NCBI GenBank assembly: GCA_963764975.1
Contig: CAVXUF010000002.1
Location: 467,809 to 531,808 of the forward strand
Length of the DNA stretch: 64,000 bases
DNA from: an uncultured Chloroflexia bacterium
GTDB lineage: Bacteria; Chloroflexota; Limnocylindria; Limnocylindrales; CSP1-4
Reading direction: 5' to 3'
Position 1 is the first letter of the stretch. Every line of letters begins with the position of its first letter. Of the stretch, positions 15,650 to 59,289 are shown one piece after another. The notes under the pieces are model-generated. The model was given only the letters and a program-made list of their open reading frames with translations. It searched no databases and had not been told where the DNA came from. Made by a program: the position numbers and the translations under genes.

Positions 15650-15716
15650 GTCGCGCGGTCGCGCGTGCGGCGCCACGGGTCGCGCGTGCGGCGCCACGGG
15701 TCGCGCGTGCGGCGCC
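15650..15716. repeat. tandem direct repeat, 21-bp unit gtcgcgcgtgcggcgccacgg, about 3 copies
   Basis: Copies at 15658-15678 and 15679-15699, plus partial copies on both sides. It is intergenic, between two plus-strand genes. Confidence 0.7.
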
Positions 15717-23589: not shown

Positions 23590-23690
23590 GGCCGAAGCAT
23601 ACCGGGCACCGATGCGCCGCGACGCTCTTCTCGTAGGGCGACCTCAGCGAGGCCGACTGCCGCAAGCAGAAGCGGGAAACCGAGGCGGCG

Positions 23691-23921
23691 ATGGCGGCGA
23701 TCCCGCAGGAGCCCGACAAGGTGGTCCTGTTCGACCAGCGCCGGGCCGTCGTCCAGTCGCTCGGGGACGAAATCGCCCAAATGACCCCCGAGGGCATCCA
23801 GCAGGTCGACGCCCTCCTCGTCGAGAGGGTGGAGACGTCCGACCGGCACGTGACGCGGGTCATCTGGGCGGGAGCGGCGCGGCCGTTTGTTGGACCAGTC
23901 TTGGCCACCGAACTTCGATAG
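23691..23921 (+). CDS. small hypothetical ORF in a divergent intergenic region
   Basis: 76 aa with coding-like sequence (VVLFDQRRAVVQSLGDEIAQMTPEGIQQVDALLVERVE). The open frame extends upstream to 23637 without a start codon. Confidence 0.25.
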   Translation: MAAIPQEPDKVVLFDQRRAVVQSLGDEIAQMTPEGIQQVDALLVERVETSDRHVTRVIWAGAARPFVGPVLATELR

Positions 23922-24063
23922 CCTCGGTCGCCGAGTGGCGGTCTGGCTGTCAATCATGAGCGTTGCCTAACCAATCCCGAAAATGGGCTTCCGGGACCGA
24001 ATGTTCAGATTCCGACAAGCGTAGGTCGCCGAATGTTTGTCACGGGTTACAACATGAGGATCG

Positions 24064-24642
24064 GTGACCGACTTGGCTTGTCAACTGTTGGCCCAAGCCT
24101 GGTTGCATACCTGTTTTGAACCTCGTGATCGTACCCATAGCTGGACCGCCGGAGGTGAAGCCGGGGAATGTATTGGTCTTTGGGGTCTTTTTACCGCCGG
24201 AGTATCGTCCACCGATGGCCGCCGACACATGGGTCGCCCCTTGACTTCTCCGGCCAGCAAACGCTGTTCGTGCGGCGGCGGCTGCCGGCGCGCGCTCACA
24301 GCCGATCTCGTTTCGCTACTCGATGGCGCCGCCGACGGCTACGAGGCCACCACCGGGACCCGCCCTCGTGGTTTCTGCTGTCCACTCTGCCTTCGTCTGC
24401 TTGATCGCGGCTGCGCCTCGCGTGCACACTACCCGGCCGAGCAGGTGGGCGGTCGTCGCTGGACCCTGCTATGCACGGCCTGCAACAGCTTCCTGGGCAC
24501 CGCTTACGAGTCCGACGCGCACCGTCATTGGACCGCAGCCGAACCCGAGGTGCGTGTCGCCTCATCGACCGTGCGAGGTGCGTGTCGCCTCATCGACCGT
24601 GCAATCTCTGCGCGTCGATGCGAAATGAAAGCGATTGGATGA
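24064..24642 (+). CDS. HNH endonuclease domain protein
   Basis: CCPLC...AHYPAEQVGGRRWTLLCTACNSFLG matches the HNH layout (CxxC, H-x-x-P, GG, LLC-x2-CN). The C-terminal tail is encoded by a duplicated 28-bp unit. Confidence 0.5.
   Translation: MTDLACQLLAQAWLHTCFEPRDRTHSWTAGGEAGECIGLWGLFTAGVSSTDGRRHMGRPLTSPASKRCSCGGGCRRALTADLVSLLDGAADGYEATTGTRPRGFCCPLCLRLLDRGCASRAHYPAEQVGGRRWTLLCTACNSFLGTAYESDAHRHWTAAEPEVRVASSTVRGACRLIDRAISARRCEMKAIG
24557..24612. repeat. perfect tandem duplication, 2 x 28 bp (gaggtgcgtgtcgcctcatcgaccgtgc)
   Basis: Positions 24557-24584 and 24585-24612 are identical. The duplication lies in the last codons of the HNH ORF, about 25 bp upstream of the next ORF. Confidence 0.9.
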
Positions 24643-25759
24643 CGCCGAACAGCCAGGCCTCGACATCCGGTCCATAACTGGTCGTGACGACCCAGGCCTG
24701 CGACGCTTTGTCGAGGGTCTTGCGGCATCAGATCGGCGAATCCGGCTGACTGTCCAGTGGCCAGTGCCTGACCACGTCAGGCTCGCCGCAATGAGCTGGG
24801 CGTACCTGCATGCATTCGCTCGCCTCGGCTACGGCTACATCCTGACGCCGGCTCTTGATCCGGTGAGGCGCGCTCTGATTGAGCCGAGTACGTCGGGCCC
24901 CGTCCCCCCAACGATCGCTCTATTTGGCGAAGGGAGGGTGCTTTCCGCCGGCGATCTATCGCTCGTGATGGCCGTTCGTCGATCGCCGTTCAACTACGGG
25001 CTCGTCGGTCTTGGTGTCGACTTCGGAAGCGTTACCGGCGTGCTCCCGATATCGGCCGATCGCGAGGCGGCCTGCTATCCGAACCTTGAGCGGCTCCTAG
25101 CCGTCGGCAGTCCGTGGATCGTGGACATCGCGCCCATCGAGAGGATCATTCCGGCGGCCGTCGGCACCCATTTGAAGGAGCACTTCACTCTCACGACCGG
25201 ACCGTATGACGTGGCGGTGACAACTCGCGAGATGGCAGCCGAGGTGGTAATGGACTCGGCGATCACGCCAGAGCGTCGGCGCGTCAGGCGTCAGTCTCGT
25301 TTCCCACCCGAAGAGCCTCCGGGTCGAGCCCCCGACCACCTAACGAGCCAGGAGTGGCGGGGCCTGCTGGAGGCTGCCGTCACAGACTTCTCGCCGGCGA
25401 GTCCCGTTCCCTCGCAGGCGCGCGGAGTAGCCTCGCTCCTGCGCCTCCTGCCGTCAGCACGTCGGCGCCACTTTGTCGATCTCCGCCACGTCCTCGTCGA
25501 GGAAGGGTCGAGCGCCCGGATCGAAACGGTCAATGGCGACCAGATCCTGGCGGGAATGCGACGTCTTGAGCAACAATTCAAGCTCGTCGATCGCCCGCGG
25601 ATCGTGCATCGCGAAATGGAGATCGGCACTCCTCCTCGTCCCTGGTATTGGGCCCGCATCACGTGGCCTGACGAGACCGTCGAGGACGTTGGCCCGTGCC
25701 TATCCCGTGGGACGCTGCTCGTGCAACTTAGTGAGCACCTGCTCCTGTCGAAACGATAG
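24635..25759 (+). CDS. hypothetical protein, partner of HNH gene
   Basis: 374-aa ORF overlapping the HNH stop by 8 nt (TTG start in the ORF track; an internal GTG/ATG is also possible). No recognised domain. Confidence 0.4.
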   Translation: MDDAEQPGLDIRSITGRDDPGLRRFVEGLAASDRRIRLTVQWPVPDHVRLAAMSWAYLHAFARLGYGYILTPALDPVRRALIEPSTSGPVPPTIALFGEGRVLSAGDLSLVMAVRRSPFNYGLVGLGVDFGSVTGVLPISADREAACYPNLERLLAVGSPWIVDIAPIERIIPAAVGTHLKEHFTLTTGPYDVAVTTREMAAEVVMDSAITPERRRVRRQSRFPPEEPPGRAPDHLTSQEWRGLLEAAVTDFSPASPVPSQARGVASLLRLLPSARRRHFVDLRHVLVEEGSSARIETVNGDQILAGMRRLEQQFKLVDRPRIVHREMEIGTPPRPWYWARITWPDETVEDVGPCLSRGTLLVQLSEHLLLSKR

Positions 25760-25982
25760 GCTCACCCTCGCACTGACACGGCCAGGATGATCAGGTCACC
25801 CTCGTCTCGCTGGTAGCCGAGGCGCTCCATCTCCAGGGGCCATTTCTGCCGGAGGCTCGGCTCCCAGAGACTGACCCAGCCTGGCAGGCGGCGGTGTATG
25901 GGCGAGGGTCGCCAAGGCTTCCGCACGGCGACCAGCGCAGAAGAGGCTATGCCTCCTGCACTGCGTCATCGACAATGGCAAC

Positions 25983-27593
25983 GTGCACGCGCCCGTTCGG
26001 CCTGACGACCCTGCGCAGAACGAGGCCCAAGCTTGGTTTCTCGGTCTCGGCGCCGACGCACGACTGCCGTTGGCAACGCGCTTCTACGAAGAAGGCAGGC
26101 ACAGCGGAACGTTCTGCGCTCTTGCCCCCACGTCGTACCGGGCAAAGGCCCTAAGCGCACCGGGGTGGGACATTGGTCACGGATCGCACGGCCCAGGCTT
26201 CATGATCGAGCGAGCCGGGGACGAGGAAGTCACCACCTACGTGAGCAACTCGTCGGCGCCGGTGGAGCCCCTGGTACTGGATCGGGACTTTCACGGAGTT
26301 GGGGCTTCCTATCGAGAACTGGCTCAGGAGTTCCGGCTGTTCCATCGACTCTACAGTGACCCTGGATCTGGTCGCCTATTCCAGTTCGACGATGCCGGGA
26401 ACGAGACGCTAGCCGGCGAACTCGCAGCAGATCATGTTTGGGTTTTGACCTCGCTGGTTCGGCAATACCAAGCGGCAAGGCAGCTCGATCTGCTCCTGTT
26501 CATCGACAGTGGCGTCTACTACGACGCGTCACTCACAACTCCGGCCGAGCGGGAGTGGGTCACGCCGGACCTGAATGCGCGGCTCAGCGTCGGAACCGCC
26601 GGTGGACGGCCTTTGAGCAAATTCCTCGCCACCCGAGTCCTGCCTCCCCCACCAATCGAGGCCTCCGGCATCTGGCCCTTCGAAGCGGCCGATACCTACT
26701 TTCCGGACTACATCATCGGCACGAACGACGTTGGGGACCCCATTCGCTTTACCTGTGATCCCGACAAGCTCGCTAACTACTTCGGCGCTAACCCAGGCGC
26801 ACCGAACTACCTGACGCCAGTGCACTTTCGACGCGAAGTTCTCGTGAAGTACTTCGGTCGCCCTGATCTCTACCGGGTCGAGGATGGGTACCTCCGGTGC
26901 CGAGCCTTGTGGGGCCTGAGGATGGACAACGACTCACCCGACACCGTCATCGTCTGGCTTGGCGATCTCGGCCTGTACCTACCGGCGGCGGAGCGGGACT
27001 ACTGGCGCGCATTCAATGTCGCCCCAGCTCGGCCGATCAGTGACTCCACGTATCAGCGCGCGATCCTGGGGCAGTTCGCTGACTCGACGTCGGAGGACCT
27101 GCGTTTTCGAGCGATCTACCGTCGCATTGGCAAGGCGTGGCTGGACCGATTTGGGTGGGCACTGTTCTTGGAGCCCGAGCCGGGCGACGCACACCTGCTC
27201 GACTCCGTGCGTCTCCCGCTGCACGACACCGACGCAGAGCTTGAGGAGACGACCCGAACCTTGGCGAAGTTGCTTGTGGACTCGCTCAACGAGGCGGCCA
27301 TCGCGCGCTCATTGCCGGAGGGCCCTGAGGGCGAGAAGGGCATCTCCAAGCTCGACCGCTGGTTCACCGAGTTCGGATACCCAAGCCGCGAGCGTGACAT
27401 CGCCTTTCTGCGAAGTCTCCAGCTCGTGCGCTCCAAGGGAGCGGCCCACCGAAAAGGCAGGGACTACGAGAAGGCCCTGGAACGCGCATTTGGAACCAAA
27501 CGCAAGGGCGACGCCGCGGGTGACCTCCTCCAGAGATCGGTCCTCATGTTGCAGGACCTGATGACCTTCGTGGCTCCGGAAGCCGGGACGTAG
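25983..27593 (+). CDS. large hypothetical protein
   Basis: 536 aa with no family recognised by eye. Its C-terminal region LVRSKGAAHRKG fits an R-x5-H HEPN-like motif, but this is weak. Confidence 0.45.
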   Translation: MHAPVRPDDPAQNEAQAWFLGLGADARLPLATRFYEEGRHSGTFCALAPTSYRAKALSAPGWDIGHGSHGPGFMIERAGDEEVTTYVSNSSAPVEPLVLDRDFHGVGASYRELAQEFRLFHRLYSDPGSGRLFQFDDAGNETLAGELAADHVWVLTSLVRQYQAARQLDLLLFIDSGVYYDASLTTPAEREWVTPDLNARLSVGTAGGRPLSKFLATRVLPPPPIEASGIWPFEAADTYFPDYIIGTNDVGDPIRFTCDPDKLANYFGANPGAPNYLTPVHFRREVLVKYFGRPDLYRVEDGYLRCRALWGLRMDNDSPDTVIVWLGDLGLYLPAAERDYWRAFNVAPARPISDSTYQRAILGQFADSTSEDLRFRAIYRRIGKAWLDRFGWALFLEPEPGDAHLLDSVRLPLHDTDAELEETTRTLAKLLVDSLNEAAIARSLPEGPEGEKGISKLDRWFTEFGYPSRERDIAFLRSLQLVRSKGAAHRKGRDYEKALERAFGTKRKGDAAGDLLQRSVLMLQDLMTFVAPEAGT

Positions 27594-27661
27594 CGCCGAA
27601 CCGCGTGACAATTCATCGCTGAGCTGTCGGGCGATCCCGTTCTCCTCTCTGCCACGATGAG

Positions 27662-29119
27662 CTAGGCGACGAGGTTGCCACGACGAGGCTTGTCGGGCCT
27701 CGGATAGCCGAGCCGAACGAGTTCGTCCTTCCACAGTCGATTGAGGATGGCCTGTCGAAGGCTGACGTTCCGCGGCAACAACTTGCTGACCTGATGTCGG
27801 CTCGGATATCTGCCCTCAGCGTGGATTGACCGAATCGCCGCCAGGATTAGGTCCTGCCGATGCCGTTGAGCTTCCATGGATTGGTCCTCGACTAATTGAA
27901 GATGGCGCTCTCGAATGAGCCGGCATTCGTCGGGATACAGCCGACTGAGCTGACGGGCGTCGACACGAAGGTCCCTTCGCACCGACCGAAGCGACGGTGG
28001 GACCTCCTGGCCGACGGCCGCGCGAAGCTTCCTTCTTACTCGGTTCCAGTCGAGGACGCGGTGTGTCTCCGTCGACTTCGGGATGTATGGGACCAGGGTC
28101 GGGCCCATGGTCAATTCAAGAAGCGTTACGCGACCAGCGAGGAAGTCGGGAAGGCGAAAGCCTGACGCGGCACAGATCCTGAGTGCGCCACCGATCGTCG
28201 GCCTGCGACGTCCGTCCTTCCACAGGCTGACGGTCCCCGCGCTCATCTGGATCATGTCCGCAAAGCGGATGTACTTGCCACCGGTACTGCGCTCGACCGC
28301 AAGTTGAACAGCGGCCGACGTTGCCACCGGGCTAACCACTTCGCCCGCGGCGGGAGGGTTCGCGATGAGATCGCAGAGGGCCGCCGTGACGTACTCCTGC
28401 CAGTTCAAGACGCGCTCATCGAGGTCCCCTTCGACGGCCTTCACGGCCTCCCATGCGACGCCGAGGAAGCGTCCGCATTCGCAGTAACCGGGCCGTGCCC
28501 ACGCTGCTAACGTCCCCCGCTTGGCTCGACAGCTCGGATCTGAGCAGGCCGACCTGAGCTTGACCCCGTGTCGGATGCATACCTCGAGTTCGGTGAACTG
28601 CCAGAGCAGCGGCTCATAGATGCCGGCAGGCGGTTGTGCGGCGGCGCCAATGGCGGGGCTGGGGACTGGATGGCTCCATTCGAAGTAGCAGCAAGGGCAG
28701 TAGGCGCGGTGGATGCGAAAGGCTCGCTTGGTCGGGAGGACGGGCGCCCAACCAAGGAGCGTCGTCGACCGGATGTCCTCTCGTCCCGTGAGCCGGCCCA
28801 AAGCCTCCGCGATGATCTCGCCGGTGTTCCATGGCCCGATCAGCGTTGAGCGGGGTTTGCGCAGGAGGTCTCGAGTGACGGCCTCGTAGTCAGCCCGAGT
28901 ACGACCTGGCCGCGTCGCGTCACTTCCGGCGTCGGCGATCCAATGCAGGAGCTCGACTGGCGGGATGCGGTGGTCCCAAGCGAGTCCGATGACGTAGCCA
29001 GCGAGGCTGACGACCATGCCGGTTCCCGTGTACTCGGGCGCTCGTCCTTGGAGGACGCTGCGTTCCGGCCACTTCTCAGCGCTGAAGTCCCAGCCCGCGG
29101 GATTCTGTTTGTCAGACAT
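27662..29119 (-). CDS. TniQ/TnsD family target-selection protein
   Basis: HRAYCPCCYFEW ... CIRHGVKLRSACSDPSCR ... YCECG is the TniQ zinc-binding-like pattern. The start is at ATG 29119, overlapping the upstream stop in ATGTCTGA. Confidence 0.55.
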   Translation of the reverse strand: MSDKQNPAGWDFSAEKWPERSVLQGRAPEYTGTGMVVSLAGYVIGLAWDHRIPPVELLHWIADAGSDATRPGRTRADYEAVTRDLLRKPRSTLIGPWNTGEIIAEALGRLTGREDIRSTTLLGWAPVLPTKRAFRIHRAYCPCCYFEWSHPVPSPAIGAAAQPPAGIYEPLLWQFTELEVCIRHGVKLRSACSDPSCRAKRGTLAAWARPGYCECGRFLGVAWEAVKAVEGDLDERVLNWQEYVTAALCDLIANPPAAGEVVSPVATSAAVQLAVERSTGGKYIRFADMIQMSAGTVSLWKDGRRRPTIGGALRICAASGFRLPDFLAGRVTLLELTMGPTLVPYIPKSTETHRVLDWNRVRRKLRAAVGQEVPPSLRSVRRDLRVDARQLSRLYPDECRLIRERHLQLVEDQSMEAQRHRQDLILAAIRSIHAEGRYPSRHQVSKLLPRNVSLRQAILNRLWKDELVRLGYPRPDKPRRGNLVA

Positions 29120-30263
29120 CGTCTGGCTCCGCTTCGCCAACGGGGTCATCCTCGAGGCCACGTTCACCCGGTCTCAGGGTGCGAGGGTCGTCGTAGTTGA
29201 CCGTGGGACGTGGAGGTGCAATGTCTTCCTGGACCGTCGATGGCGCGGTGCCCTCGAGGATCGCGATCACGTCGTCGATGGTCACACTCGCCTCCTCGGC
29301 AATGCGCTTCTCGAAGGCAACGAACCGATGCGCCAGCGACCGGAGTTGATGCGGCTGGAGAGGCACCCGCTCCCCCAACACGTCCTCAGCCGTGTACTTG
29401 GCTGGACGCTCGGCAAGAAGCCTGTTCGCACTGGCGATCCAACGATGCAACCTGGCCACCGAACCGACGCTGTAGGCCATCAGGAAGCTGAGCACGTCAT
29501 CACTTGCTGCAGGGGCCTTGGCGCCCATTACGGCAAGTTCGAGCGCAGCGATACGAGCGAACTCGAGTCGGTCTTTGTGCCCGCGGGTCGATTGATAGCG
29601 CGGAAGGTAGACCTCTGCAACGGCTGTTGACGTCGTGCGGTATTCGAGGACCTCGAAACCTCCGCTGAGGACCAGAATGACCCCGGCAGCCGCGGCGAAC
29701 TGGGCGAGCATCTCGGCCCCATCACCCGGCACGGCGACCGGGATTCGTCGTCCTCGCCGCTCGAAGCGGGTCACGACGACCACCTTGACCTTCCGATGCT
29801 CGCATTCGCTCGCGGCCGCGATCAGCTGGTCGGCGCATTCCTTCAGCTGTGCCCGTCGCCCCAGCACCCAACCTGCCGAAACGGATCGAAGCTCGCTGGA
29901 CGGGACCTGTACATCGGACCGGGCCGCTCCGAGCTTGCCCTGGATCTCCGCGAAAAGCGTGCGGAGGTCGAGCACGCCCTTACGATCGAAGGTCGCCAAG
30001 ACTGGGACCACTGGCGAAAACGATGGGTCGCGAAGCATCTCGAGACGGTGTCCGTAGGCAAACATGTTCGCGCCAATCAGCGTCGCGGCGTCGCAGTCTT
30101 CCCCGGTCGGTCCGTACACGAGAATCAGGGAACCTGCCTGCTCGGTTGAGAGGAGGGATCCGAGACGGTCCACGGCGACCTTTTGGAGCCGGTGCGCCGC
30201 GGGAGTCGCTTCCGCGTTGTCTGAGTCCGGCGCAGGCAGACCACGGGCGATCGCAAGGGTCAC
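29112..30263 (-). CDS. TnsC/TniB-position AAA+-like protein with degenerate Walker A (LILVYGPTGEDCDAATL, no Lys-Ser/Thr)
   Basis: It sits between the transposase and tniQ with GTGA/ATGA overlaps, and is about 383 aa. Its P-loop-like segment lacks the conserved GK[ST]. Confidence 0.4.
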   Translation of the reverse strand: MTLAIARGLPAPDSDNAEATPAAHRLQKVAVDRLGSLLSTEQAGSLILVYGPTGEDCDAATLIGANMFAYGHRLEMLRDPSFSPVVPVLATFDRKGVLDLRTLFAEIQGKLGAARSDVQVPSSELRSVSAGWVLGRRAQLKECADQLIAAASECEHRKVKVVVVTRFERRGRRIPVAVPGDGAEMLAQFAAAAGVILVLSGGFEVLEYRTTSTAVAEVYLPRYQSTRGHKDRLEFARIAALELAVMGAKAPAASDDVLSFLMAYSVGSVARLHRWIASANRLLAERPAKYTAEDVLGERVPLQPHQLRSLAHRFVAFEKRIAEEASVTIDDVIAILEGTAPSTVQEDIAPPRPTVNYDDPRTLRPGERGLEDDPVGEAEPDDV

Positions 30264-33148
30264 GGTGCGCCATCCTTGCCCGTGAATGGGATGACGTTGC
30301 CTCCGGATCCGACCTCCTCGAAGTCGTCAGCGCGATGACGGATCTTCGAACCAAAGATGAGTGCTGATCGAGCGTCGGAGGAAACCCGTGCGGCGGCCAG
30401 CTTGGGTGCTCGAGAAGACCTCGCCACGGCTGTGTGCTCGTCCTCAGGCACGACTGGGGCAGCCCACAGGGGTTCACGCGCCGCGCCGAGAACATCGCCA
30501 CGAGGCAGGTCGAGGCGCTTCGCGGCCGTTCGGCCACTCGCCTTCCTCGCCGCCGCCTGTTCGGCGATCAGGTCTCCTTCCCGCTCCAGCATTTCGACGA
30601 GCAGGTCCCCGAGCTTGCCGTCCTCGACCTGCTTGCGCCGGTAGTGGCCCTCGTTGAAGGCCAGGACTACCTTGGTGAAGAAGGAGAGTTCCAGGTAGGT
30701 CAGGTGGAAGCGAGCGATGGGCGAGCGTAGGACGCATCGAACCCAGCGAGCGGCGACAAATTCTCCATCGTCCGTGTGACGTGGGACGAACACCCACACG
30801 GCACCGATGTCGCCACGAATGATCCTCACCGTCACCTGAACGCCTTCGAGCCGAGGGTGCGTGAGGGCCTCATCCCAGTAGTAGAGACGGTTCACCCAGA
30901 TCCCATTGCTGTTGGAGACCTTCGGACGCCATGCATGTCGAACGGCCATCTCACGCTCGATGTGCGCACTCCAGCGGACGAGGCGCGACTGGCGCATACC
31001 GTGTTCGAAACGCGCATCCCAAGCTTCGTCTGTCGTCTGGCGGAGTGCCTGGATGACTCGCTCGTGCTCGACAAGCGCGTCCCGTTTGTCAACGAGCGCG
31101 ATGGCCTCCGCAAGGGGCCAGATCGCGTGGTTCCGGGGATCAAGCTCACGGTCCATGGCGCGCGCATTCTTGGAAATCTGGGTATTGGCCATCATCGCGT
31201 TGAACAAGTCGGTATTGATCGCCCCGAACCTCCGTTCGACCGGTAGACCGCCCCGGCCACTCGATTTCAGGCGGTACTTCACCTCAGAGCCGTGAAGCGC
31301 TAGGAACTTTTGGACTCGAGTGGTCTTGTGGACAAGCGCGTTGTCGAGAACGTAGACCTCGGACAGGAAGCCGAACTTTCGGATCTGGTCAGCGAGGGCC
31401 TCGAGGACGACACCCTCGTCGACCTCGCCGAAGTGCCAAGCCTGCCCGAGCTTCTTCCCCGAGAAGCCATCGACAAGTCGGAAGAGGCTCGGGCGCAGCG
31501 CGCCGTCCCGGGTGAAGCGCTCGCATACCCAGATGTCGGTGACGGTCGCGTCCCCATGAGCGATCTGGCCAGGGTATTGGCCGTTCGGCGACTCTGAGTC
31601 CGGATCGAACATGACCCACGGCTTCTTGGAGGCAGCACCCTTGTGCCCGACGCTCTTGAGCAGCGACTCGTAGATCGGACGTCCTCGGAGCCAGGTCAGG
31701 ATGGCCGGATAGCTCGGTGCTTTGATGCCTTGCTTGTTGGCGCGGGATAACACGTCGCGATAGAACGCTTTGGCCGACGGTTTTCGCCCAGGCGTGTCGA
31801 AGAACGCCGCTGCGCGGACGACCAGGAAGTCGTTCACCGGTTCGGCGAGGTGGCTGCCAGGTCTACCTGCATTCGGACGTTCGAGCAGGCCCGCGAACCC
31901 GCAGCCGATCTCAGCCCATTCCCAGTAACGCGTCTGCCATTCCCGGACAGTGGCCAGGGCTGGGTTCTTGCCCGCCACGACGGGAAACGCAATGCGCTCG
32001 CGCGCCCAATACTCCTGTAGAGCGACAAGTCGCTCCTCGGCAAGTTCGACCGCGTCAGGTCCTGCTCCATCGAACCGCGCCTCGATCAGGGCGAGGTTCG
32101 CTCGATCCTCATCGTCCGCGGGGCCGAGTCCACTCATCGCTCCAGATCTGATTGCTTGGTCGACGTCTGAGCGAGAGACCACTTTCGTCCTGCGTCCATC
32201 GGGACCGTCGATTTGCTTGAACGAGATGCTGCCCGCCGACGTTCGGACAATCTCGTACCGAGCATCGAGCCAGAGGACCATCTCGCCGGCCTTGAGATTG
32301 ACCGGTCCCGGCCGTCCTCCACCGACCGCGACCACCACTGGTGACGGCATCTGCGCGGCGACGACAGGCGAGAGGTAGGCGAAGGCCGCGTCCTCATACT
32401 CGAGTTCGTACGCCAACAGGTCGACATAGATCAGGCCGCTCAGGATGGCGATGCAGATGTCGTCCTTAGAGAACCCGCGACGACGCAGTTCGCCGACCGG
32501 GATACCTGGATGGTCTGCGACGCACGACCAAATCGCGGATGCGATCCCCTCCGGAACAGCGCATCCGATGAAGCTCGCAAGGTATTTGGCGTTGCTGATC
32601 TCCTTCTTGCTGAGCGACTCGATGACGATGACCGTGTAGGTGAGACCCCATTCGGCGGCGTAGTCGTCGCCGCTTGGACAGCGCCAGAGTCCGTCGACCT
32701 TGACGTAGAACCCTGGGTGCGCGTCGATCTGGTCGTCTACCGCCTTCTGCGTCTTGATGTCGACCCAGCCGGGAGCCTTGTCGCCCCAGAAGACGAAAGC
32801 GTCCATGGTTCCCCACTGCGATGGGAACCTGACCTTTCCGTCGTCGCCGAGCGTGGCAAAGACCCGCTTCACCTGCTCCTTGGGCTGCGCCGCGTACCAG
32901 AGGACTCGCGTCCAATACTCGAACAGCTTGTAAACGTTGTACTCACTGAACAATTCAGCTTCCCTCGTGCGACCCGCCTTCTTGCTCGCGATCCTCGCGC
33001 TGCCGTGGTAGCGATCGGGGCGGGTCTTTCGTGACGCACCGATTGCCGCCCAGACCCGCCGACAGATGGCTTCCCCGCCGGCCGATAGAGCTGGCGACAG
33101 TCCAGACCGGTAGGTTTCGAAATCCTCTGCCTCGAATCTGCGTTTCAT
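30260..33148 (-). CDS. fused TnsA-TnsB transposase (TnsA endonuclease-like N-domain + DDE/rve transposase)
   Basis: The N-terminal region aligns to the Tn7 TnsA catalytic core: SKKAGRTREAELFSEY.. (E), TMDAFVFWGD (D), VDIKTQ (K). The DDE domain has DATVTD ... VLDNA ... VERRF. The start is ATG 33148 (MKRRFEAEDFETY). Confidence 0.7.
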   Translation of the reverse strand: MKRRFEAEDFETYRSGLSPALSAGGEAICRRVWAAIGASRKTRPDRYHGSARIASKKAGRTREAELFSEYNVYKLFEYWTRVLWYAAQPKEQVKRVFATLGDDGKVRFPSQWGTMDAFVFWGDKAPGWVDIKTQKAVDDQIDAHPGFYVKVDGLWRCPSGDDYAAEWGLTYTVIVIESLSKKEISNAKYLASFIGCAVPEGIASAIWSCVADHPGIPVGELRRRGFSKDDICIAILSGLIYVDLLAYELEYEDAAFAYLSPVVAAQMPSPVVVAVGGGRPGPVNLKAGEMVLWLDARYEIVRTSAGSISFKQIDGPDGRRTKVVSRSDVDQAIRSGAMSGLGPADDEDRANLALIEARFDGAGPDAVELAEERLVALQEYWARERIAFPVVAGKNPALATVREWQTRYWEWAEIGCGFAGLLERPNAGRPGSHLAEPVNDFLVVRAAAFFDTPGRKPSAKAFYRDVLSRANKQGIKAPSYPAILTWLRGRPIYESLLKSVGHKGAASKKPWVMFDPDSESPNGQYPGQIAHGDATVTDIWVCERFTRDGALRPSLFRLVDGFSGKKLGQAWHFGEVDEGVVLEALADQIRKFGFLSEVYVLDNALVHKTTRVQKFLALHGSEVKYRLKSSGRGGLPVERRFGAINTDLFNAMMANTQISKNARAMDRELDPRNHAIWPLAEAIALVDKRDALVEHERVIQALRQTTDEAWDARFEHGMRQSRLVRWSAHIEREMAVRHAWRPKVSNSNGIWVNRLYYWDEALTHPRLEGVQVTVRIIRGDIGAVWVFVPRHTDDGEFVAARWVRCVLRSPIARFHLTYLELSFFTKVVLAFNEGHYRRKQVEDGKLGDLLVEMLEREGDLIAEQAAARKASGRTAAKRLDLPRGDVLGAAREPLWAAPVVPEDEHTAVARSSRAPKLAAARVSSDARSALIFGSKIRHRADDFEEVGSGGNVIPFTGKDGAP

Positions 33149-33660
33149 GTCGATGACCTGGCGGCGATGGGCACGGCTACGCAGATTGCACACAGTCCGC
33201 CTTCACGCGTGGCCTGACGGCGCAGACGCTCCGCTCGACGCAGTAGCGCCAAGTCCGGGTCACCCGAGTCGTGCCAGATCGCGCGATCGAGCAGCGCCAT
33301 CGGGACGACTCGCCCGACGCCGGCCAATGCCCGATGCGCTGCCCCGAAGTCACAGGCGTGTCGGATCGTCGTTCGGTCTGCCTGGCTCAGGGCGACATCA
33401 GAGCCAGCCCGCTCGTGTGACTGCAGGAACTCCGCATATCGGGTCTCGAGCGATCGCGCCGACACGCCGAGCGTGAGGCGAACTCGGTCGAGCACATGCC
33501 ATGGCATGTCAGCGTGCTTCGTATGCATTTCGAGAAGCACCTGGAAGGCTTCGTGCCATTGGGCGCCGGTGGGTCGCTGGCGGGCGGGACCGCGAGAAGG
33601 CGTGGCGACCGGAGTCGGCGAGTTCGCGTGATGGTGTGCATCGGAAGGCATGCCCACCAC
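33145..33660 (-). CDS. hypothetical protein translationally coupled upstream of tnsAB
   Basis: Its TGA stop overlaps the tnsAB ATG (ATGA). 171 aa as listed; the true start is uncertain (internal Met at MHTKHAD or MPWHVL). Confidence 0.35.
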   Translation of the reverse strand: MVGMPSDAHHHANSPTPVATPSRGPARQRPTGAQWHEAFQVLLEMHTKHADMPWHVLDRVRLTLGVSARSLETRYAEFLQSHERAGSDVALSQADRTTIRHACDFGAAHRALAGVGRVVPMALLDRAIWHDSGDPDLALLRRAERLRRQATREGGLCAICVAVPIAARSST

Positions 33661-33840
33661 AGAAGCAGCAGATGGCGCCGATAGCTATGGCGCGCCGGCT
33701 CGCGAATGCGGGCTTTGCGGGATTGTGAGGCGAATTCCGCCGACCGGAGGTGCGTTTGGGCAACGCCATCGCACCATGAGCGGAGCGTTGAGCTTGTTCG
33801 TCAGTCAGACAACGCGCGTCGATCCTCTGTTGACGAGGGT

Positions 33841-34383
33841 ATGGAAACCCTTGAAATGAGCGTGCCGGAAGCGGCACGACGCCTCGGTCGTAATGAGAGC
33901 ACCGTCCGTCGAATGATCGACGACGGCCGCCTGCCTGGTACACCCAAAAGGAAGCCGGGCGCCCATGCCAAGGTCTTGCGTGCGGCTGTCGAGGCGATGG
34001 CTGCCACCTCTCGCCAGTACTCCTCGATCTCGGCACGACTAGCGAACCTTCCCACGAGGGTTTGGAGCGGCCGCATGGGGCCGGCTCTGTTCATCCTCGA
34101 CCACGAAGCTATCCGCCGCGAGGTCTACCGGCACGTTTACCTTGGGCCAGATCGAATCGACTTCGACGTCATCTACTCGGAGTTCCTGGCCGACGAGGAC
34201 GTTGCGCTGGTGGAGGCGGCGCACGTCTTGTACGACGCTGCTGTCGACGTCAGCTTTACGCGACTCGTAGAGACGCTTCGGGGCGAGCGTCTCCTGCGTG
34301 TGGGTCTCGCCATTGAACTGCGCGAGGGTTCGATCGACCGATGGGAGGCTTTTCGCATCATCGGCCGGCACAGTCGCAGGTGA
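33841..34383 (+). CDS. helix-turn-helix (excisionase/AlpA/MerR-like) DNA-binding protein
   Basis: METLEMSVPEAARRLGRNESTVRRMIDDGRLPG is an HTH_17-like motif. Third-codon positions are GC-rich in this frame. It overlaps the antisense ORF 34039..34860. Confidence 0.45.
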   Translation: METLEMSVPEAARRLGRNESTVRRMIDDGRLPGTPKRKPGAHAKVLRAAVEAMAATSRQYSSISARLANLPTRVWSGRMGPALFILDHEAIRREVYRHVYLGPDRIDFDVIYSEFLADEDVALVEAAHVLYDAAVDVSFTRLVETLRGERLLRVGLAIELREGSIDRWEAFRIIGRHSRR

Positions 34384-34860
34384 GGTGAAAAGGCTCGGAC
34401 CCAGAATCCGGAGTTCCTGTGGACTTCCGGATGGCGCGGCTGCGGTCTCCGCGACGATGGTCGCGACCAACTGGCGTCGGACGCTTCGGAGGGCGACGAC
34501 AGGGTTACGGCTCCCCCGCCCAAGACGGAGCCGGGACCGCTTCGGCAGACCAATCAGGTCCGCGTAGAAGCGTTCGTTCTCGGGAACCAACGCGACTCGC
34601 AGGCCGGTGGCTCGACCGAGGATCGTCATGTCGGCAGCGAGCTGCGCGTCCGCCCAAGCCAGGTCGATGAGGTTGTCGGCGATCGACGTCGGCGGGAGCA
34701 GCGGTGTCACATGGTCGATACCACGGGGATCCTCGAGCATCGTCCGCAACAAGATGACGCGCCCTGAGCCGCGGCCTGTCTCTGGACAAGGGCGTTCCCA
34801 TTGCTCTCGCAGCTCTTCGGCCGTCGTGCCTTCGGGATGGACGCGCGTTCGGAGGCTCAT
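34039..34860 (-). CDS. hypothetical protein downstream of, and 4-nt overlapped with, the FtsH-like AAA+ protease gene
   Basis: 273-aa ORF. The N-terminal about 150 aa look protein-like. The 3-prime part overlaps the plus-strand HTH gene, so its extent is uncertain. Confidence 0.35.
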   Translation of the reverse strand: MSLRTRVHPEGTTAEELREQWERPCPETGRGSGRVILLRTMLEDPRGIDHVTPLLPPTSIADNLIDLAWADAQLAADMTILGRATGLRVALVPENERFYADLIGLPKRSRLRLGRGSRNPVVALRSVRRQLVATIVAETAAAPSGSPQELRILGPSLFTSPATVPADDAKSLPSVDRTLAQFNGETHTQETLAPKRLYESRKADVDSSVVQDVRRLHQRNVLVGQELRVDDVEVDSIWPKVNVPVDLAADSFVVEDEQSRPHAAAPNPRGKVR

Positions 34861-36236
34861 GCCGCCTCCGGCGTCATGAAGGCCGCCGCCTCGATCGCGG
34901 CCATCAGCTCGTCGCCCGTGAGTTCGGTCGCAGCATCGAGGGCTTTGGCGAATGTGGTGATCGGGCCGAAATTTGCCGCGACGATCCGCTCGGCCGCGGC
35001 GCGTGCCGAGACGAGCGTGGCCGCGACCACGGAGCCCAGACTGTCCTTCAGGTTTTCGGGCACATTGAGGCCGAACTCGGCGAGGGCCACCGGTGGGTGA
35101 CCAGCCTCCCAGCCCTGCTCCACGCGCTGGACCGCTCGATTCGTGGCCATCTCCAGATCCGCACCCGCCAATGAGGGCTCGCCGAGGATGGCGGCCTCTG
35201 AACAGGTTCCGCAGAACACGCTGATCAGGAAGTCGCGGTGCTCGTCATCAGGCAGGTCGTTGGGACTGATGCCTTCAAGGCCGAAATTCGTTTTCCCGCC
35301 GCCGTCGTTGTCGATCGAGACGGCGTGAACCCACGACGCGCCGTCGCCGCCACGGCCGGCGGCACGAGCCAGGATGACCAGGCCGGCGACATGACCGGCC
35401 TCATGGACGGCTGTCCGCCAGCGCGATGGGGAGTTCGTCTGCTCGGGCAGGATGTTGCCGGCGCGGCGCAGCGCCTCGACCAGGTCGGCGTCGACAAGGA
35501 CCGAACGTCCGGCGACCAGGGCCAGTCCGGCGGCGTCCTCGACGAACGCCTGGATGTCGGCCGGTGATCGGTCGCGACTGAGTCGGGCGGCCCGTCGGAG
35601 GTCGAGGGTGCCATCGGTCGGCCGAGACCGCGAGTACAGGGCGAACAGCTCGGCGCGCTCGTCCTCGTTGGGCAGGTCGAAGAAGATGTGCGTCCCCAGC
35701 CGACCGCTGCGGATGAGGGCGGGGTCCAGCTCCGCGGGGTGGCGATTCGTCGCCACGACGACGATCGGACCCTCGGAGGGGACCAACCCGGACAAGGTCG
35801 ACAGGGCCGAGGTCAGCAAAAGTCTGGTCGCCGGAGTATGGGTCCCGAATGCGCGCTGAACCGCCCAGGAGTCTGCCTCGTCGATGAAGACAACACTTTT
35901 CTGAGGAGCAGAAGCGAGCGAGCGGATGGCTCCCCGTAATCGGTCCGGGCTCAACTCGTCCGATGGGATCTCGTAGAGGTCCACCCCATCGCCCAATTGC
36001 GAGGCGAGGTAACGGGCGAGATGGGTCTTGCCTGTGCCGGGCGATCCGTAGAAGAGGATGCCCCGTGGTGGGACGGCGCCGAGGAGTGCGACTCGTTCGG
36101 GATCGCGGAGGCGAGCAAGGAGGGAGTCGACTTCGGCCATCGCGTGACCGATACCGACGACCTGCGATCGGTCGAACCGGGCCATCTCGACTCGGTGGGC
36201 ATCGAGCCAGGCTTGGGTGAATCGCGCCTTGAGCAT
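34857..36236 (-). CDS. soluble FtsH-like AAA+ ATPase fused to M41-type zinc peptidase (no TM domain)
   Basis: Walker A GSPGTGKT, Walker B VVFIDEAD and SRH SGRLG. The peptidase part has TAVHEAGHVAGL (HEXXH) and LAGADLEMATN, like the FtsH protease domain. No N-terminal TM helices. Confidence 0.7.
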   Translation of the reverse strand: MLKARFTQAWLDAHRVEMARFDRSQVVGIGHAMAEVDSLLARLRDPERVALLGAVPPRGILFYGSPGTGKTHLARYLASQLGDGVDLYEIPSDELSPDRLRGAIRSLASAPQKSVVFIDEADSWAVQRAFGTHTPATRLLLTSALSTLSGLVPSEGPIVVVATNRHPAELDPALIRSGRLGTHIFFDLPNEDERAELFALYSRSRPTDGTLDLRRAARLSRDRSPADIQAFVEDAAGLALVAGRSVLVDADLVEALRRAGNILPEQTNSPSRWRTAVHEAGHVAGLVILARAAGRGGDGASWVHAVSIDNDGGGKTNFGLEGISPNDLPDDEHRDFLISVFCGTCSEAAILGEPSLAGADLEMATNRAVQRVEQGWEAGHPPVALAEFGLNVPENLKDSLGSVVAATLVSARAAAERIVAANFGPITTFAKALDAATELTGDELMAAIEAAAFMTPEAA

Positions 36237-36401
36237 CTGTTGGACTCCGGGTGACGGGGTGTGTCATCCGAGGAGACCAGCTATGGGGCGCTAGGGGAAG
36301 CACGTCGGGAGGCTCTAGAGGCCGGGGTGCGGTCATTGCGATCTTTGGGACCGCGAATGGGCCCTTCCTTGACAGCGCCAGTGTCCCAACCATCGTCTGA
36401 C

Positions 36402-36608
36402 ATGAAGAGCCAGCGGTTCATGGGCACGGAAGAGGTGGGGCGCCGACTCGGTATGAGTTCCGAGTGGGTGCGGCGGCAGTGCATTGCCATGAAGATGCCG
36501 GCGATCGTCTACCGCACAGGTTCGCGATCGGTGTACCGGATCACCGAGGAAGGGCTCGCTGAGTTCCAGCGGCGATATGCGGGCACCGCTGACGATGTTC
36601 AGGACTAA
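36402..36608 (+). CDS. excisionase/AlpA-like HTH protein
   Basis: 68 aa from ATG 36402: MKSQRFMGTEEVGRRLGMSSEWVRRQ...IVYRTGSRSVYRITEEGL. Confidence 0.5.
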   Translation: MKSQRFMGTEEVGRRLGMSSEWVRRQCIAMKMPAIVYRTGSRSVYRITEEGLAEFQRRYAGTADDVQD

Positions 36609-36898
36609 GCGCGATCCGAGTACGGCAGCGAATGGACCCGATGGGTTGGTTTGCCTGTTCCTCGCGGGTAGGCGTCGTCGGCCGGCCGAACAGTAAGACT
36701 CTTACAGTGTCGTTGCGCTACACCATCTCGAGGAGCCACCTTGAGCCAGGGCGGCGTGGTCGCGTCTCTCGCATCGGCGCAGATCCGCGCCACTTGAAGC
36801 GAACGCCTAAGGCCACTTGCTGCCGTACTGGGCGCGATCCCATGCGGGCGTCAGGCCGAACAGGACACCAACGGACTGGCGCGCGGAGGCTGCGAGCT

Positions 36899-39112
36899 CT
36901 AGAGGTTGTCGGCACCCATGTCAGCCCAACCAGGGGGCCACAGCTCCATGTGATCCTCACCCTGCGGCGCTTGCGCGGCACTCTCGGGCCGACGAGGTGA
37001 GGAAGCCGTGGCCGCCTCCGAGAGCAACTCGTCGAAGCGAGCAGCGAGCTCCAGATCGGGACTCGCTGGAATCTCCCGGATCCCGTCGATCTGATCGAGT
37101 CGGTACTCGCTGATCCGTCCGACCAGGACCAGGTCTCCACGAGACCTGGTCAGACCGACGTAGACCAAGCCGGCCGTCTGCGCCGGCGCCGACCTGAACG
37201 GGAGGATCAGGATCACCCGTCCAGCCTCCCAACCCTTGAAGGAATGGACGGTGGAGACCTTGAGGCGGGCGTCCCCGAATGCGAATGTCTTCTTGTTCGC
37301 CTGCGCGATCCGCCATGGCGCGTCCTGTTCCCGACCCGTCGACCGTTCCATCATCGCCCCAGTGCGGGTGACGGGAAAGACGTGGTTCGTGCTCACACCC
37401 TGCTCGGCGAGGAGCCGGACAAGCGCCTGGCCCAGCGGCTTATCTGGGACCACGATCGCGACGTCGCGCGCTCGATAGTCTGGTTCGGCCTGCCACGATC
37501 GAAGCACGCCAATCACCTCCGCAGCGGCATCGGCCGGCCTGTGCGCCCTGATCGTCGAGACGGTGGCATCTGGAGGCAGGAGTCCATCCTCAGCCGCTTG
37601 AAGCGGAGGCGTCTTCAGAGACCACTCAGCGGCGAAAGTGGTGGCAAGAAGGACACTTGATGCCGGCAGCCTGATGGCCTTGCCGAGCCGATGGACGCGG
37701 CCCGTCGTTCCTCCAAACAGCCGGGCAATATCGCCGCGCGTCATGGCCGACTCACGCTCATACAGGCGCTGGGCCGCGTCGTATGCCAGGACGACCTCAG
37801 AAGCCCCAAGACGCTGGACTAGCTCGAACCAGGCGGGACTGAAATCCTGCGCCTCATCGATGAACACGGCGTCAAACTGGAGCGTATCGGGTACTCCACG
37901 CTGTTCGAGAAGGCGGATCGCAGACGCCGGCCAGTCAGCTTCGAGCGCCTGTTGATCGGCCGCCTCGTCGTCCCACGGTCCCGCCTCGACGGGGCGCGTG
38001 GCTCCGATCGGTGGAAGTGGCTCGCGGTAGTAGTCGTGGACGCGGCGGCACAGTTCGTGGAGGTGCAGGACGGTTACACGGTCTGGCCGGTACGCGACAG
38101 GGACGAGCCGGAGCATCCCTCGCACGTAGTTGGTCAACGTCCTGTTGAAGGTCAGAATCAGGGACCTCCTCCCACGCTGGGCCGACACGCCGGCCCGCTG
38201 TGCGAGGACAAGGGTTTTACCGCTGCCTGCCACGCCTTCGAGGCCCGTGTAGCCGTCACGAGGAACGGCGAAGTCCCGCTGCTCCTTGTTGAGGGTGATG
38301 GTCGCAAGCGCATCGGGCATTCGGCGTTCGTGGGTCAGCGCTTGGTCGAGGGCCTCGAACCACTGGTCCTCAAGAACCGCGGCTCGACCCAGGATCGGCA
38401 CCACGCGCAGTGGGTCGCTCACGACGAGGCCGTCGTGTCCGAATGCATCGACGTGGCGCGCGTCTGGATCCTGGGATGCCAGGCGTCGGGCATCGGCCGT
38501 CGATGACTGGGAAAAGAACAGACCCGCCCTCAGGACCCCGAATCGCCGCGAGTCGTCGTTGATCGCCTCGCCGATCTCCGGAGCGTAGACGCCATACACG
38601 CGCGAGCGGACGGCATTGAGGAACCTGAACGGCGAAGCGAAGCGCCCTTCGATCGGGCCCTCGCCAACCCAGACCCCTCGTTCGACCCGGAAATACTTCA
38701 GGTCCCAGTCGACGACATCCCAGAACATGCCGCCCGCGGTGCGGTGCAGCGCGGCGATCAGCGGGCGGTCCGCATCCAGGTGTGGGCGGACGTAGATGTT
38801 CCAATCGTGGGGAAGGACGTCATCAAGAAACCGGGCCAGACGACGTTCGCCGTCCGTCAACGGAGGGATGAACCTGTCGGGATCATTGATCTCCGCCCAT
38901 GCCGGACTGATCCGACCTTCATCCGCGGCGGTCAGGCGACGGAGCCCTGGATGGTGCTCCAGAAAATCACGGGTCTCGCCGTCGTCGAAGCGAGCCGAGA
39001 TGATCCCGGACCGGACAGCCAGAACCGTCGCATTGCCCAATTGCGGATGCCGGACACGCTCGCCGGGGCCGAGCGGGGTCCGTTCGTCAGGTCCTTCGCC
39101 CGCGAGCGTCAT
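36899..39112 (-). CDS. NERD domain + UvrD-like superfamily I helicase
   Basis: The N-terminal NERD-like region has HDWNIYVRPHLD. The helicase has motif I GVAGSGKT, motif II FIDEAQDF, and the C-terminal VHSFKGWEAGRVILILP. Confidence 0.7.
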   Translation of the reverse strand: MTLAGEGPDERTPLGPGERVRHPQLGNATVLAVRSGIISARFDDGETRDFLEHHPGLRRLTAADEGRISPAWAEINDPDRFIPPLTDGERRLARFLDDVLPHDWNIYVRPHLDADRPLIAALHRTAGGMFWDVVDWDLKYFRVERGVWVGEGPIEGRFASPFRFLNAVRSRVYGVYAPEIGEAINDDSRRFGVLRAGLFFSQSSTADARRLASQDPDARHVDAFGHDGLVVSDPLRVVPILGRAAVLEDQWFEALDQALTHERRMPDALATITLNKEQRDFAVPRDGYTGLEGVAGSGKTLVLAQRAGVSAQRGRRSLILTFNRTLTNYVRGMLRLVPVAYRPDRVTVLHLHELCRRVHDYYREPLPPIGATRPVEAGPWDDEAADQQALEADWPASAIRLLEQRGVPDTLQFDAVFIDEAQDFSPAWFELVQRLGASEVVLAYDAAQRLYERESAMTRGDIARLFGGTTGRVHRLGKAIRLPASSVLLATTFAAEWSLKTPPLQAAEDGLLPPDATVSTIRAHRPADAAAEVIGVLRSWQAEPDYRARDVAIVVPDKPLGQALVRLLAEQGVSTNHVFPVTRTGAMMERSTGREQDAPWRIAQANKKTFAFGDARLKVSTVHSFKGWEAGRVILILPFRSAPAQTAGLVYVGLTRSRGDLVLVGRISEYRLDQIDGIREIPASPDLELAARFDELLSEAATASSPRRPESAAQAPQGEDHMELWPPGWADMGADNL

Positions 39113-56848: not shown

Positions 56849-57083
56849 CTTCGCGATGCCCGAGAGCGAGTCAGTTCGTGCGCCGTCGATGCGAGTTGCC
56901 GAAGTTTGGGGTCGGATCGAGGCATCGGGAGGGCGGCCAACGAGGGGCACCAGGCTGCCAGGCTGTCGACTGGGCAAGATGACGACGAAGATGCCGGTTG
57001 CGGCGTGCTCGGCCTAAAGCCACTCGTTTCGAAACGGGCCACGTCTCGCCCGAGCAAGCGTCGTCGAGGGAAGCACCGCACCG

Positions 57084-58827: not shown

Positions 58828-58913
58828 CCGTCGTACACATCGAGGCGCTGAGCGACTTCACGGTGGTTTCGATGGCACCGCGCTCACGCCGTGCGGCAAT
58901 CAGGACATCGGTC
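58828..58913. repeat. direct repeat copy B, homologous to 39463..39594
   Basis: See copy A. The inter-block spacer is 16 bp here versus 61 bp in A. Confidence 0.7.
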
Positions 58914-59267: not shown

Positions 59268-59289
59268 CGGATCTGTCTCCAAGGCTTCG

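Follow-up and report, generated by a model that had tools for sequence, protein, structure and literature searches.

To our knowledge, in all the Tn7-like and CRISPR-associated transposon (CAST) systems studied, TnsC acts as an ATP-dependent switch by which the choice of target is coupled to the activation of the transposase. The type I-B2 PmcCAST of a Peltigera membranacea cyanobiont (PDB 9bw1, 8v32, 8fcu and 9g0f) gives the best match among solved structures for each of the three large proteins of the locus described here, which lies in a 64,000-nucleotide stretch of DNA (the window) from an uncultured Chloroflexia bacterium (contig CAVXUF010000002.1, positions 467,809 to 531,808). The TnsABCD homing apparatus of PmcCAST is the nearest characterized machine. 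PmcTnsAB is a natural TnsA–TnsB fusion whose hook comprises residues 892–898 (PMC11915506). The nucleotide-site residues of PmcTnsC are K63 and T64 in Walker A, E172 in Walker B and the arginine fingers R223 and R224, and mutation of the Walker B glutamate leaves no detectable insertion or transposition (PMC11915506). TnsAB fusions, homing through TnsD and defence-rich Tn7-like elements are already known (PMC9881144, PMC10293859, PMC8649781).

The region 27662–36608 of the window (minus strand) probably, though by no means certainly, represents the conserved core of a rare Tn7-family element. The element would belong to the TnsAB-fusion/TnsD lineage, which includes the homing machinery of type I-B2 CASTs; its TnsC-like protein would be a nucleotide-independent scaffold, and its helix-turn-helix (HTH) and protease genes would be regulatory. 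A preliminary description, made from the sequence without database searches, had recognized a Tn7-like module with TnsAB, TnsC and TniQ/TnsD genes and an upstream coupled open reading frame (ORF). This core interpretation is upheld by the PmcCAST matches to all three proteins and by the conservation of the catalytic residues.

The Tn7-like module and its TnsC-like protein

The gene in the TnsC/TniB position (29112–30263, minus strand) encodes a protein of 383 amino acids with no Pfam or NCBIfam match. Its AAA+ fold is indicated by structural and profile comparisons. The AlphaFold2 (AF2) model, with a predicted local distance difference test (pLDDT) score of 71, retrieved type I-B CAST TnsC as its top Foldseek matches (8fcu_Q, E = 6.4e-10, and 9g0f), followed by the TnsC proteins of Tn7, Tn6677 and type V-K systems. 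In addition, the family profile matched the Pmc TnsC chain (8fcu/9bw1) in the PDB at E = 6e-9. What had been a call by gene position is thereby borne out as a TnsC fold.

The ordinary relatives of this protein carry a Walker A motif of the type GPTGVGKT (consensus GxxxxGK[ST]), a Walker B motif of the type hhhhDEAQH and the arginine-finger segment QLSRRS. At the first site, the window protein reads GPTGEDCD (G51-P-T-G-E-D56-C57-D58; GPSGxDCD in the family), and at the second, VVVVTR (V161-V-V-V-T165-R166; VVVVTHLE in the family). The RR segment is removed by a four-residue deletion that characterizes the family. At the motif level, the protein lacks all three features associated with ATP binding and hydrolysis.

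These changes are common to 12 aligned family sequences, which are 41–76% identical to the window protein. The Walker A and Walker B patterns ([AG]xxxxGK[ST] and hhhhD[DE]) were found in none of 16 family sequences, and Walker A is present in 128 of the 132 full-length outgroup matches. Judged by motifs, every member has thus lost both Walker A and B as well as the arginine fingers, a feature that had been missed in the preliminary description. The loss is old, since the same substitutions (GPSGxDCD and VVVVTHLE) occur in members that are only 41–55% identical. The family alignment contains 71 invariant columns, and the C-terminal tail RPGERxxxDDPVG is kept in the window protein, with the form RPGERxxxxDxVG and many other positions shared with the ordinary relatives. 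A profile search of 1.84 billion representatives returned only seven family representatives at E ≤ 1e-30, followed by a wide gap, with ordinary TnsC-like proteins appearing from 1e-23. No second P-loop protein was found among the ORFs on the tniQ side of the module.

The neighbouring tnsAB gene (30260–33148, minus strand) encodes 962 amino acids combining a TnsA nuclease of the PD-(D/E)xK type with a TnsB transposase of the DDE type. A phmmer search of the PDB aligned residues 36–804 of the 977-amino-acid ORF with chain 9bw1_M (898 amino acids) at E = 6.5e-43. This chain can be assigned to the PmcCAST TnsAB, because 9bw1 holds TnsAB, TnsC and TnsD chains together and 898 residues fit the hook at 892–898 (PMC11915506). 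The TnsA core with conserved E, D and K residues, noticed in the preliminary description, does align to the PmcTnsAB nuclease domain, and E69, D116 and D130-x-K132 are invariant in six family members (52–56% identity). The alignment also spans the DDE core, in keeping with the TnsB-like character proposed for the rest of the protein: D533, D602 and E638 are invariant in the same six-member alignment, the last two being 35 residues apart. With complete nuclease and DDE active sites, the transposase looks intact at the level of its sequence.

Pfam recognizes window TnsAB weakly through Mu-transpos_C (1.5e-3). The Pfam models TnsA, rve and TniB do not match the window proteins even at E = 10, and NCBIfam matched none of the three large tns proteins. 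The TnsA, TnsB and TnsC assignments are therefore based on PDB and fold matches, as Pfam and NCBIfam give no call. Distant TnsAB homologues carry PF08722, PF00665 and PF09299, PF08722 being found in homologue P0008, and a plasmid scan identified cyanobacterial and Bacillus TnsAB fusions that are 23–25% identical to window TnsAB. An exact look-up of the window TnsAB sequence gave no record.

The last gene of the module is a tnsD-type TniQ target selector (27662–29119, minus strand, 485 amino acids; the longest ORF extends to 29167). Its membership of the TniQ family, already proposed, is confirmed by Pfam PF06527 (E = 7.7e-9) and by a full-length match to PmcCAST TnsD (8v32_J, residues 9–455, E = 2.2e-29), in addition to a match to the short Pmc TniQ (E = 5.9e-17). 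The window protein is 55–62% identical to the copies of its relatives.

Together with a small ORF, these genes form a minus-strand series of four coupled genes (27662–33651). The small ORF occupies 33145–33651 from an ATG (168 amino acids) or 33145–33660 from a GTG (171 amino acids). Its TGA overlaps the tnsAB ATG at 33148 (ATGA), the tnsAB TGA shares four nucleotides with the GTG of the TnsC-position gene, and the latter overlaps tniQ by eight nucleotides. The ATG of the small ORF and the tniQ start were taken from the gene calls of L094. This contig comes from another sample, matches window positions 26621–34390 with 99.94% identity, has the same context as the window and is uninformative for ends. 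The ORF list and these gene calls agree with the coordinates, lengths and 4–8-nucleotide overlaps originally given.

The conserved unit upstream of tnsAB

The relatives of the module were found at the loci L001, L002, L003 and L099 and in the L004/L006/L008/L009 group. The coupled gene order is kept across seven independent lineages, and in all seven lineages with enough sequence (7/7) the tns genes are preceded by an HTH_17 gene together with a gene for a soluble FtsH-like AAA protease. The shared order consists of a small divergent HTH_17 gene, one or two soluble AAA proteins with Peptidase_M41, the small ORF, TnsAB, the TnsC-like protein and TnsD. Between the protease and the small ORF, some loci have in addition a short gene that varies and another HTH gene, again in divergent orientation. 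Outside the block from HTH_17 to TnsD, nothing is shared between loci, and contig L099 (8.1 kb) consists of this block alone. The upstream extent of the unit was not noticed in the preliminary description, which had found it unusual that tnsA was not end-proximal. Since the conserved unit continues upstream into HTH_17 and protease genes, tnsA is end-proximal in no family member.

The coupling of a 171-amino-acid ORF to tnsAB, also pointed out at that stage, is a general property of the family. Homologues with 35–44% identity occupy the same position in L001–L004 and L099, and in every relative the small ORF is coupled to tnsAB or abuts it. The protein is all-helical, with conserved H..H, W and C-terminal CxxC residues. 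Pfam gives no match, the AF2 model, of low quality (pLDDT 66), has no fold match, and the profile shows a weak homeodomain-like match in the PDB (E = 0.02). The product of the small ORF is a putative DNA-binding accessory protein or regulator. A paralogue of this protein (25–32% identity) is encoded elsewhere in the window, at 58887–59522 on the minus strand. It adjoins the second copy of a 74-bp direct repeat described below and lies upstream of genes for a zinc-ribbon protein (57409–58485) and a JAB-domain protein (56036–56977), with no transposase beside it.

In the window, the soluble FtsH-like AAA protease is encoded at 34857–36236 on the minus strand (459 amino acids; Pfam AAA, 2e-20). 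Alignment with Peptidase_M41-bearing relatives shows intact Walker A and B motifs, an arginine finger and a HEAGH zinc motif, and no membrane anchor. PADLOC labels the protein as IetA-like (2.7e-19). A protease gene lies upstream of the tns genes in the window, L001, L002, L003, L004/L006 and L099, and also in the sister elements L095 and L098. The AAA gene was considered as an attachment site and rejected, as it diverges faster than TnsAB (38–48% versus 54–58%) and also occurs without Tns genes.

Two HTH genes flank the protease. The outermost conserved gene of the unit is a small HTH_17-like gene at 36261–36608 (plus strand; weak Pfam HTH_17 match, 5.9e-4), divergent from the AAA gene. Its product is 34–49% identical to those of the HTH_17 genes at the same position in L001 and L002, and the arrangement recurs in L099. 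The inner gene (33856–34383, plus strand, divergent from the tns genes) encodes an HTH_17 DNA-binding protein of 175 amino acids (E = 4.8e-9; L094 gene call), with a divergent HTH gene for 175 amino acids at the matching position in L004, L006, L008 and L009. This protein is probably a regulator of the tns operon. A minus-strand ORF of 273 amino acids (34039–34860), taken from the ORF list and third-codon-position GC content (GC3), overlaps the AAA gene stop by four nucleotides. It is doubtful, because its last 345 nucleotides (34039–34383) overlap the inner HTH_17 gene convergently on the other strand, and the two cannot both be fully real. The HTH_17 gene is favoured by its domain match and its counterpart of the same length in L004. 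The 273-amino-acid ORF has no Pfam, NCBIfam or PADLOC match and is not conserved in the relatives.

The protease is also found beside other mobile genes. In an uncharacterized sister family (L098, 72–9126; L095, 9647–18560), an FtsH-like protease is accompanied by Ku, a small protein homologous to that of the coupled ORF (32% identity in L098), a 907-amino-acid TnsAB-like protein, TniB and TniQ. The presence of a Ku gene within a cut-and-paste transposon is unusual. Proteases of this type occur without Tns genes as well: one in L096 (10001–11374) adjoins genes for a large serine recombinase and NERD, DUF4236-TPR and ThiF/JAB proteins, and a tandem pair in L097 (855–3689) adjoins a tyrosine integrase. 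These observations suggest that the soluble FtsH-like protease is a general mobile-element cassette. It is not specific to the family with the motif-less TnsC, since it accompanies both sister elements with an intact TniB and islands without Tns genes.

Ends, genomic context and competing explanations

The preliminary description could not find ends by eye. The same outcome was obtained with seed-and-extend repeat searches over 18–50 kb, comparison of inverted 16-mers between 33.6–47 kb and 19–27.7 kb, searches for local direct repeats with inverted partners, k-mer clusters and all-against-all Smith–Waterman alignments of 18 intergenic regions. Cross-locus comparisons, namely alignments of the core edges in the window, L001 and L002 and a search for 8- and 9-mers shared at the core edges of five loci, did not change this result. 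The terminal repeats, arrays of TnsB sites of about 20 bp and 5-bp target-site duplication for which a search had been proposed thus yielded only one weak pair, at 36.86 and 25.99 kb.

This sole inverted-repeat candidate consists of TGTCCTGTTCGGCCTGACG at 36867–36849 (minus strand) and CGCCCGTTCGGCCTGACG at 25990–26007 (plus strand). TGTCCTGTTCGGCCTGACG is the only candidate right end, in the 290-bp non-coding gap (36609–36898) beyond the outer HTH_17 gene. The pair is the best inverted match among the 18 intergenic regions, scoring 28 against a shuffle maximum of 26, but its 13-nucleotide exact match is about what chance would give in this search space and the registers differ. The flanks (CCAAC versus TGCAC, or GCAAC in the other register) form no clean 5-bp duplication, and the motif is absent from L001–L003. 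The gap also contains CTGTTCGGCC twice (36863 and 36693, minus strand), which was tested as an end motif in the relatives with no result, as well as a 12–16-bp inverted repeat (36819–36832/36616–36633) and the palindrome TCGGCCGGCCGA at 36679–36690. In L001 and L003, a similar GC-rich palindrome comes after the HTH_17 gene. The inverted repeat and palindrome of the gap may be operators or terminators. Neither the gap repeats nor the inverted pair is established as a transposon end, and the true ends may lie outside the available sequence.

Other candidate borders were rejected. The break 105 bp after tnsD in L004-type contigs has no inverted partner upstream, and an apparent upstream break among 99%-identical contigs of this type is merely an indel. 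A UvrD gene as an attachment site common to the window and L005 was dismissed, the similarity being only at the superfamily level. No empty site was obtained: a TnsAB alignment scan showed that the family is absent from GTDB species-representative genomes, and a scan with the flanking PALP protein gave best matches of 83–89% in Chloroflexota metagenome-assembled genomes, with no synteny past that gene.

The flanks likewise offer no shared landmark. On the tniQ side, the variable flank with possible cargo (22393–27593, mixed strands) shows no similarity to the sequence after tniQ in any relative. It encodes an EVE and REase_II-like protein (22393–23589, minus strand), a weakly HNH-like protein (24064–24642, plus strand) and two plus-strand ORFs without matches (24635–25759 and 25983–27593). 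The proposal that the cargo on this side was defence-like stands in part: it fits the EVE/REase_II-like and weak HNH genes, but the two ORFs nearest to tniQ match nothing. The other flank, immediately outside the conserved unit, also carries defence-like genes, namely those for a NERD+UvrD candidate system protein (36899–39112, minus strand; PADLOC 1.1e-53) and a Swt1-like HEPN+NACHT protein of 1266 amino acids (39711–43511, plus strand). The ORFs scanned from 20 to 47 kb contain no cas domains, searches for a spaced or tandem repeat array were negative, and a single TniQ-family gene is present.

Other repeats occur elsewhere in the window. A 74-bp direct repeat (39439–39512/58804–58876; 86% identical, 19.4 kb apart) is the only DNA common to both regions and brackets a block with HEPN-NACHT, kinase/PP2C/VWA and FtsK/SpoIIIE genes. 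Within the repeat, AGGAGG precedes a GTG. The two copies may stem from duplication of the 5′ end of a gene, or they may be att-like borders left by the integration of an element. An 857-amino-acid protein with carboxypeptidase-regulatory-like repeats (46745–49318, plus strand) carries a 906-bp internal duplication, in which 47495–47794 is identical to 48401–48700 and the local GC content is raised, at 0.69–0.70. Perfect tandem repeats occur at 15657–15716 (21 bp × 2.9, in the high-GC left part) and 24546–24602 (28 bp × 2, within the HNH-like ORF).

The distribution of the family is patchy. It comprises about a dozen members, all on metagenome contigs; a metagenome scan added only two short loci, and viral contigs gave none. 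Each lineage has its own flanks on either side. Copies that are about 99% identical, from several metagenome samples, have three different downstream contexts, and L004 and L008 diverge 105 bp past the tnsD stop. In these near-identical copies, the variable codons are 15 synonymous-only and 18 amino-acid-changing in tnsAB, and 11 and 15 in tnsD. The non-synonymous to synonymous ratio is thus about 1.2–1.4, compared with about 3 under neutrality, although the numbers are small. The tnsC gene was left out, as the contigs had been selected for identical TnsC. These features, together with the position of the window copy in island-like DNA of lower GC content (0.62–0.65, next to 0.70), are signs of mobility or of constraint.

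In the reading favoured here, TnsD would bind a specific DNA site, the TnsC-like protein would bridge TnsD and TnsAB as a scaffold that needs no nucleotide, and TnsAB would cut both strands at the element ends and join them to the target in a cut-and-paste reaction. The ATP-dependent TnsC steps (regulated ring assembly, proofreading, immunity and disassembly) would either be unnecessary or be provided by another factor. Expression would be controlled by the HTH_17 proteins, perhaps along with the FtsH-like protease, a repressor/protease switch being the simplest guess. In a more speculative version, to which we give little credence, remodelling and disassembly would have been handed over to the soluble FtsH-like AAA protease of the element, by analogy with ClpX, which serves phage Mu. 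This would explain why the protease always lies just upstream. The idea draws on co-occurrence and the dead motifs, and its counterpoint is that the protease is also found beside sister elements with an intact TniB.

Several observations weigh against the element proposed here. ATP binding is considered necessary for TnsC in every Tn7-like system studied, so that a motif-less TnsC could leave the machine inactive. Neither terminal inverted repeats, TnsB-site arrays nor a 5-bp duplication were convincingly found in the window, and the same holds for the borders of the conserved core in the window, L001, L002 and L099. As the preliminary description had judged, the flanks do not resemble a classic att gene: neither the window nor 13 loci contain a tRNA or tmRNA, and there is no Rfam RNA and no neighbouring gene conserved between loci. 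A variant in L005 and L007 has lost nearly all of tnsAB, with tnsC and tnsD intact (L005, 7028–10014; L007, 7234–10220; 99.2% nucleotide identity to L004). There, the last 337 bp of tnsAB are joined to the 3′ end of a gene for a 776-amino-acid UvrD helicase, and the sequence diverges at the tnsD stop. Moreover, knowledge of the family comes solely from those metagenome contigs, not from isolates or experiments, and the roles given to the small ORF, HTH genes and protease are guesses.

The missing ends and duplications, the truncated tnsAB and the loss of all ATPase motifs, seen beside the inactive Walker B glutamate mutant of PmcCAST, would also be expected of a decaying, immobile remnant. In this scenario, the element once transposed and was killed by the loss of the TnsC ATPase, and its fossils are now carried in genomic islands. 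However, fossils should gather frameshifts and active-site changes. Here, the motif loss is old and uniform, yet the four genes are full length, coupled and highly conserved, the TnsAB active sites are invariant, and near-identical copies are found in different contexts, which makes a simple fossil unlikely. The preliminary description had itself allowed for a domesticated gene, to be recognized by undetectable ends and target-site duplication together with homologues lacking the TnsA triad. The former were indeed undetectable, but the homologues retain the triad.

The dead ATPase and absent ends are also compatible with an exapted module, in which TnsAB, TnsC and TnsD and the HTH_17/FtsH-like cassette would serve a role other than transposition (for example, defence or island maintenance), with TnsC as a structural adaptor. 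The IetA-like AAA protease cassette, which is always linked to the module, and the defence genes on both sides of every locus (TIR, CBASS-type SMODS, Type ISP, NERD-UvrD and HEPN-NACHT) fit such a role. Nevertheless, this cassette is also found with sister elements whose TniB is normal (L095, L098) and in Tns-less recombinase islands (L096, L097), and because it is so widespread among other mobile elements, a dedicated non-transposition system seems improbable. The rare, patchy distribution and changing flanks are typical of a mobile element, and the nuclease and DDE sites, which cut-and-paste requires, are both retained. Finally, the module could be a passenger of a larger element with ends far away or outside the window, either a low-GC island of more than 40 kb with FtsK/SpoIIIE or a very large Tn7-like element, a rival that is compatible with the reading of the proteins given above. 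The GC content of the window is about 0.70 up to 20 kb and 0.62–0.69 from there to its end, the tns copy lying within DNA of 0.62–0.65. Island-type genes, including an FtsK/SpoIIIE gene, occur throughout 36.9–63 kb, and no ends were found near the core. This possibility is nonetheless rather remote, given that the conserved block of the relatives runs only from HTH_17 to TnsD with unrelated DNA directly outside, that L099 holds just this block and that L004 and L008 part so soon after tnsD. The Tn7-family element that we favour may or may not be mobile today.

Comparison with described systems

In the literature, no report was found of a natural TnsC clade without Walker A, Walker B and arginine fingers. 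A full-text search likewise returned no paper combining Tn7-like, FtsH and TnsC, and the HTH_17 and FtsH-like protease cassette beside Tn7-like modules is an undescribed association. The Benler 2021 census relied on the Pfam TnsA, rve and TniB models, and the Faure 2023 TnsC tree dropped sequences with badly aligned Walker motifs. Such censuses would not have picked up the family, because the Pfam models miss its proteins and a Walker-less TnsC is discarded. The family offers a direct test of which TnsC functions truly need ATP, since the motifs are long gone while TnsAB, TnsD and the TnsC tail stayed constrained. If the element is active, it could also provide a simpler adaptor for engineered DNA insertion.

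Tn5053/Tn402 (TniA, TniB, TniQ and TniR) also have a DDE transposase, an AAA+ adaptor and TniQ in a row. Unlike the window module, they have no TnsA and use the TniR resolvase, whereas the window unit has a catalytic TnsA domain and no resolvase. Escherichia coli Tn7 (TnsA–TnsE) shares more, namely the heteromeric nuclease plus DDE chemistry, the AAA+-fold adaptor, the TniQ-family selector and the order A, B, C and D. However, in the window TnsA and TnsB are fused, TnsE is absent and TnsC lacks the ATPase motifs. About 3.5 kb of conserved genes precede tnsA where Tn7 has its right end, and neither an attachment gene of the glmS type nor TGT ends nor a 5-bp duplication can be demonstrated.

The sister family (L098/L095) has the same layout as the window and is 27% identical in TnsAB, 34% in TniQ and 32% in the small ORF. 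In contrast to the window, its TniB/TnsC keeps GPPGAGKT and VLLIDE, it contains Ku, and it is recognized by the Pfam models rve and TniB.

Compared with PmcCAST, the window proteins are only about 15–25% identical, and Cascade genes, a CRISPR array and a second TniQ are absent. The window TnsC has no equivalents of the Walker A Lys/Thr, the Walker B Asp-Glu and Arg223/224. Extra genes (the small coupled ORF, HTH_17 and the FtsH-like protease) lie upstream, and there is no tRNA attachment site nearby. Both systems nevertheless have a TnsA–TnsB fusion with PD-(D/E)xK and DDE sites, a TnsC fold and a full-length TnsD-type selector in the same gene order, and the window TnsC-like protein has the conserved C-terminal tail motif of related TnsCs.

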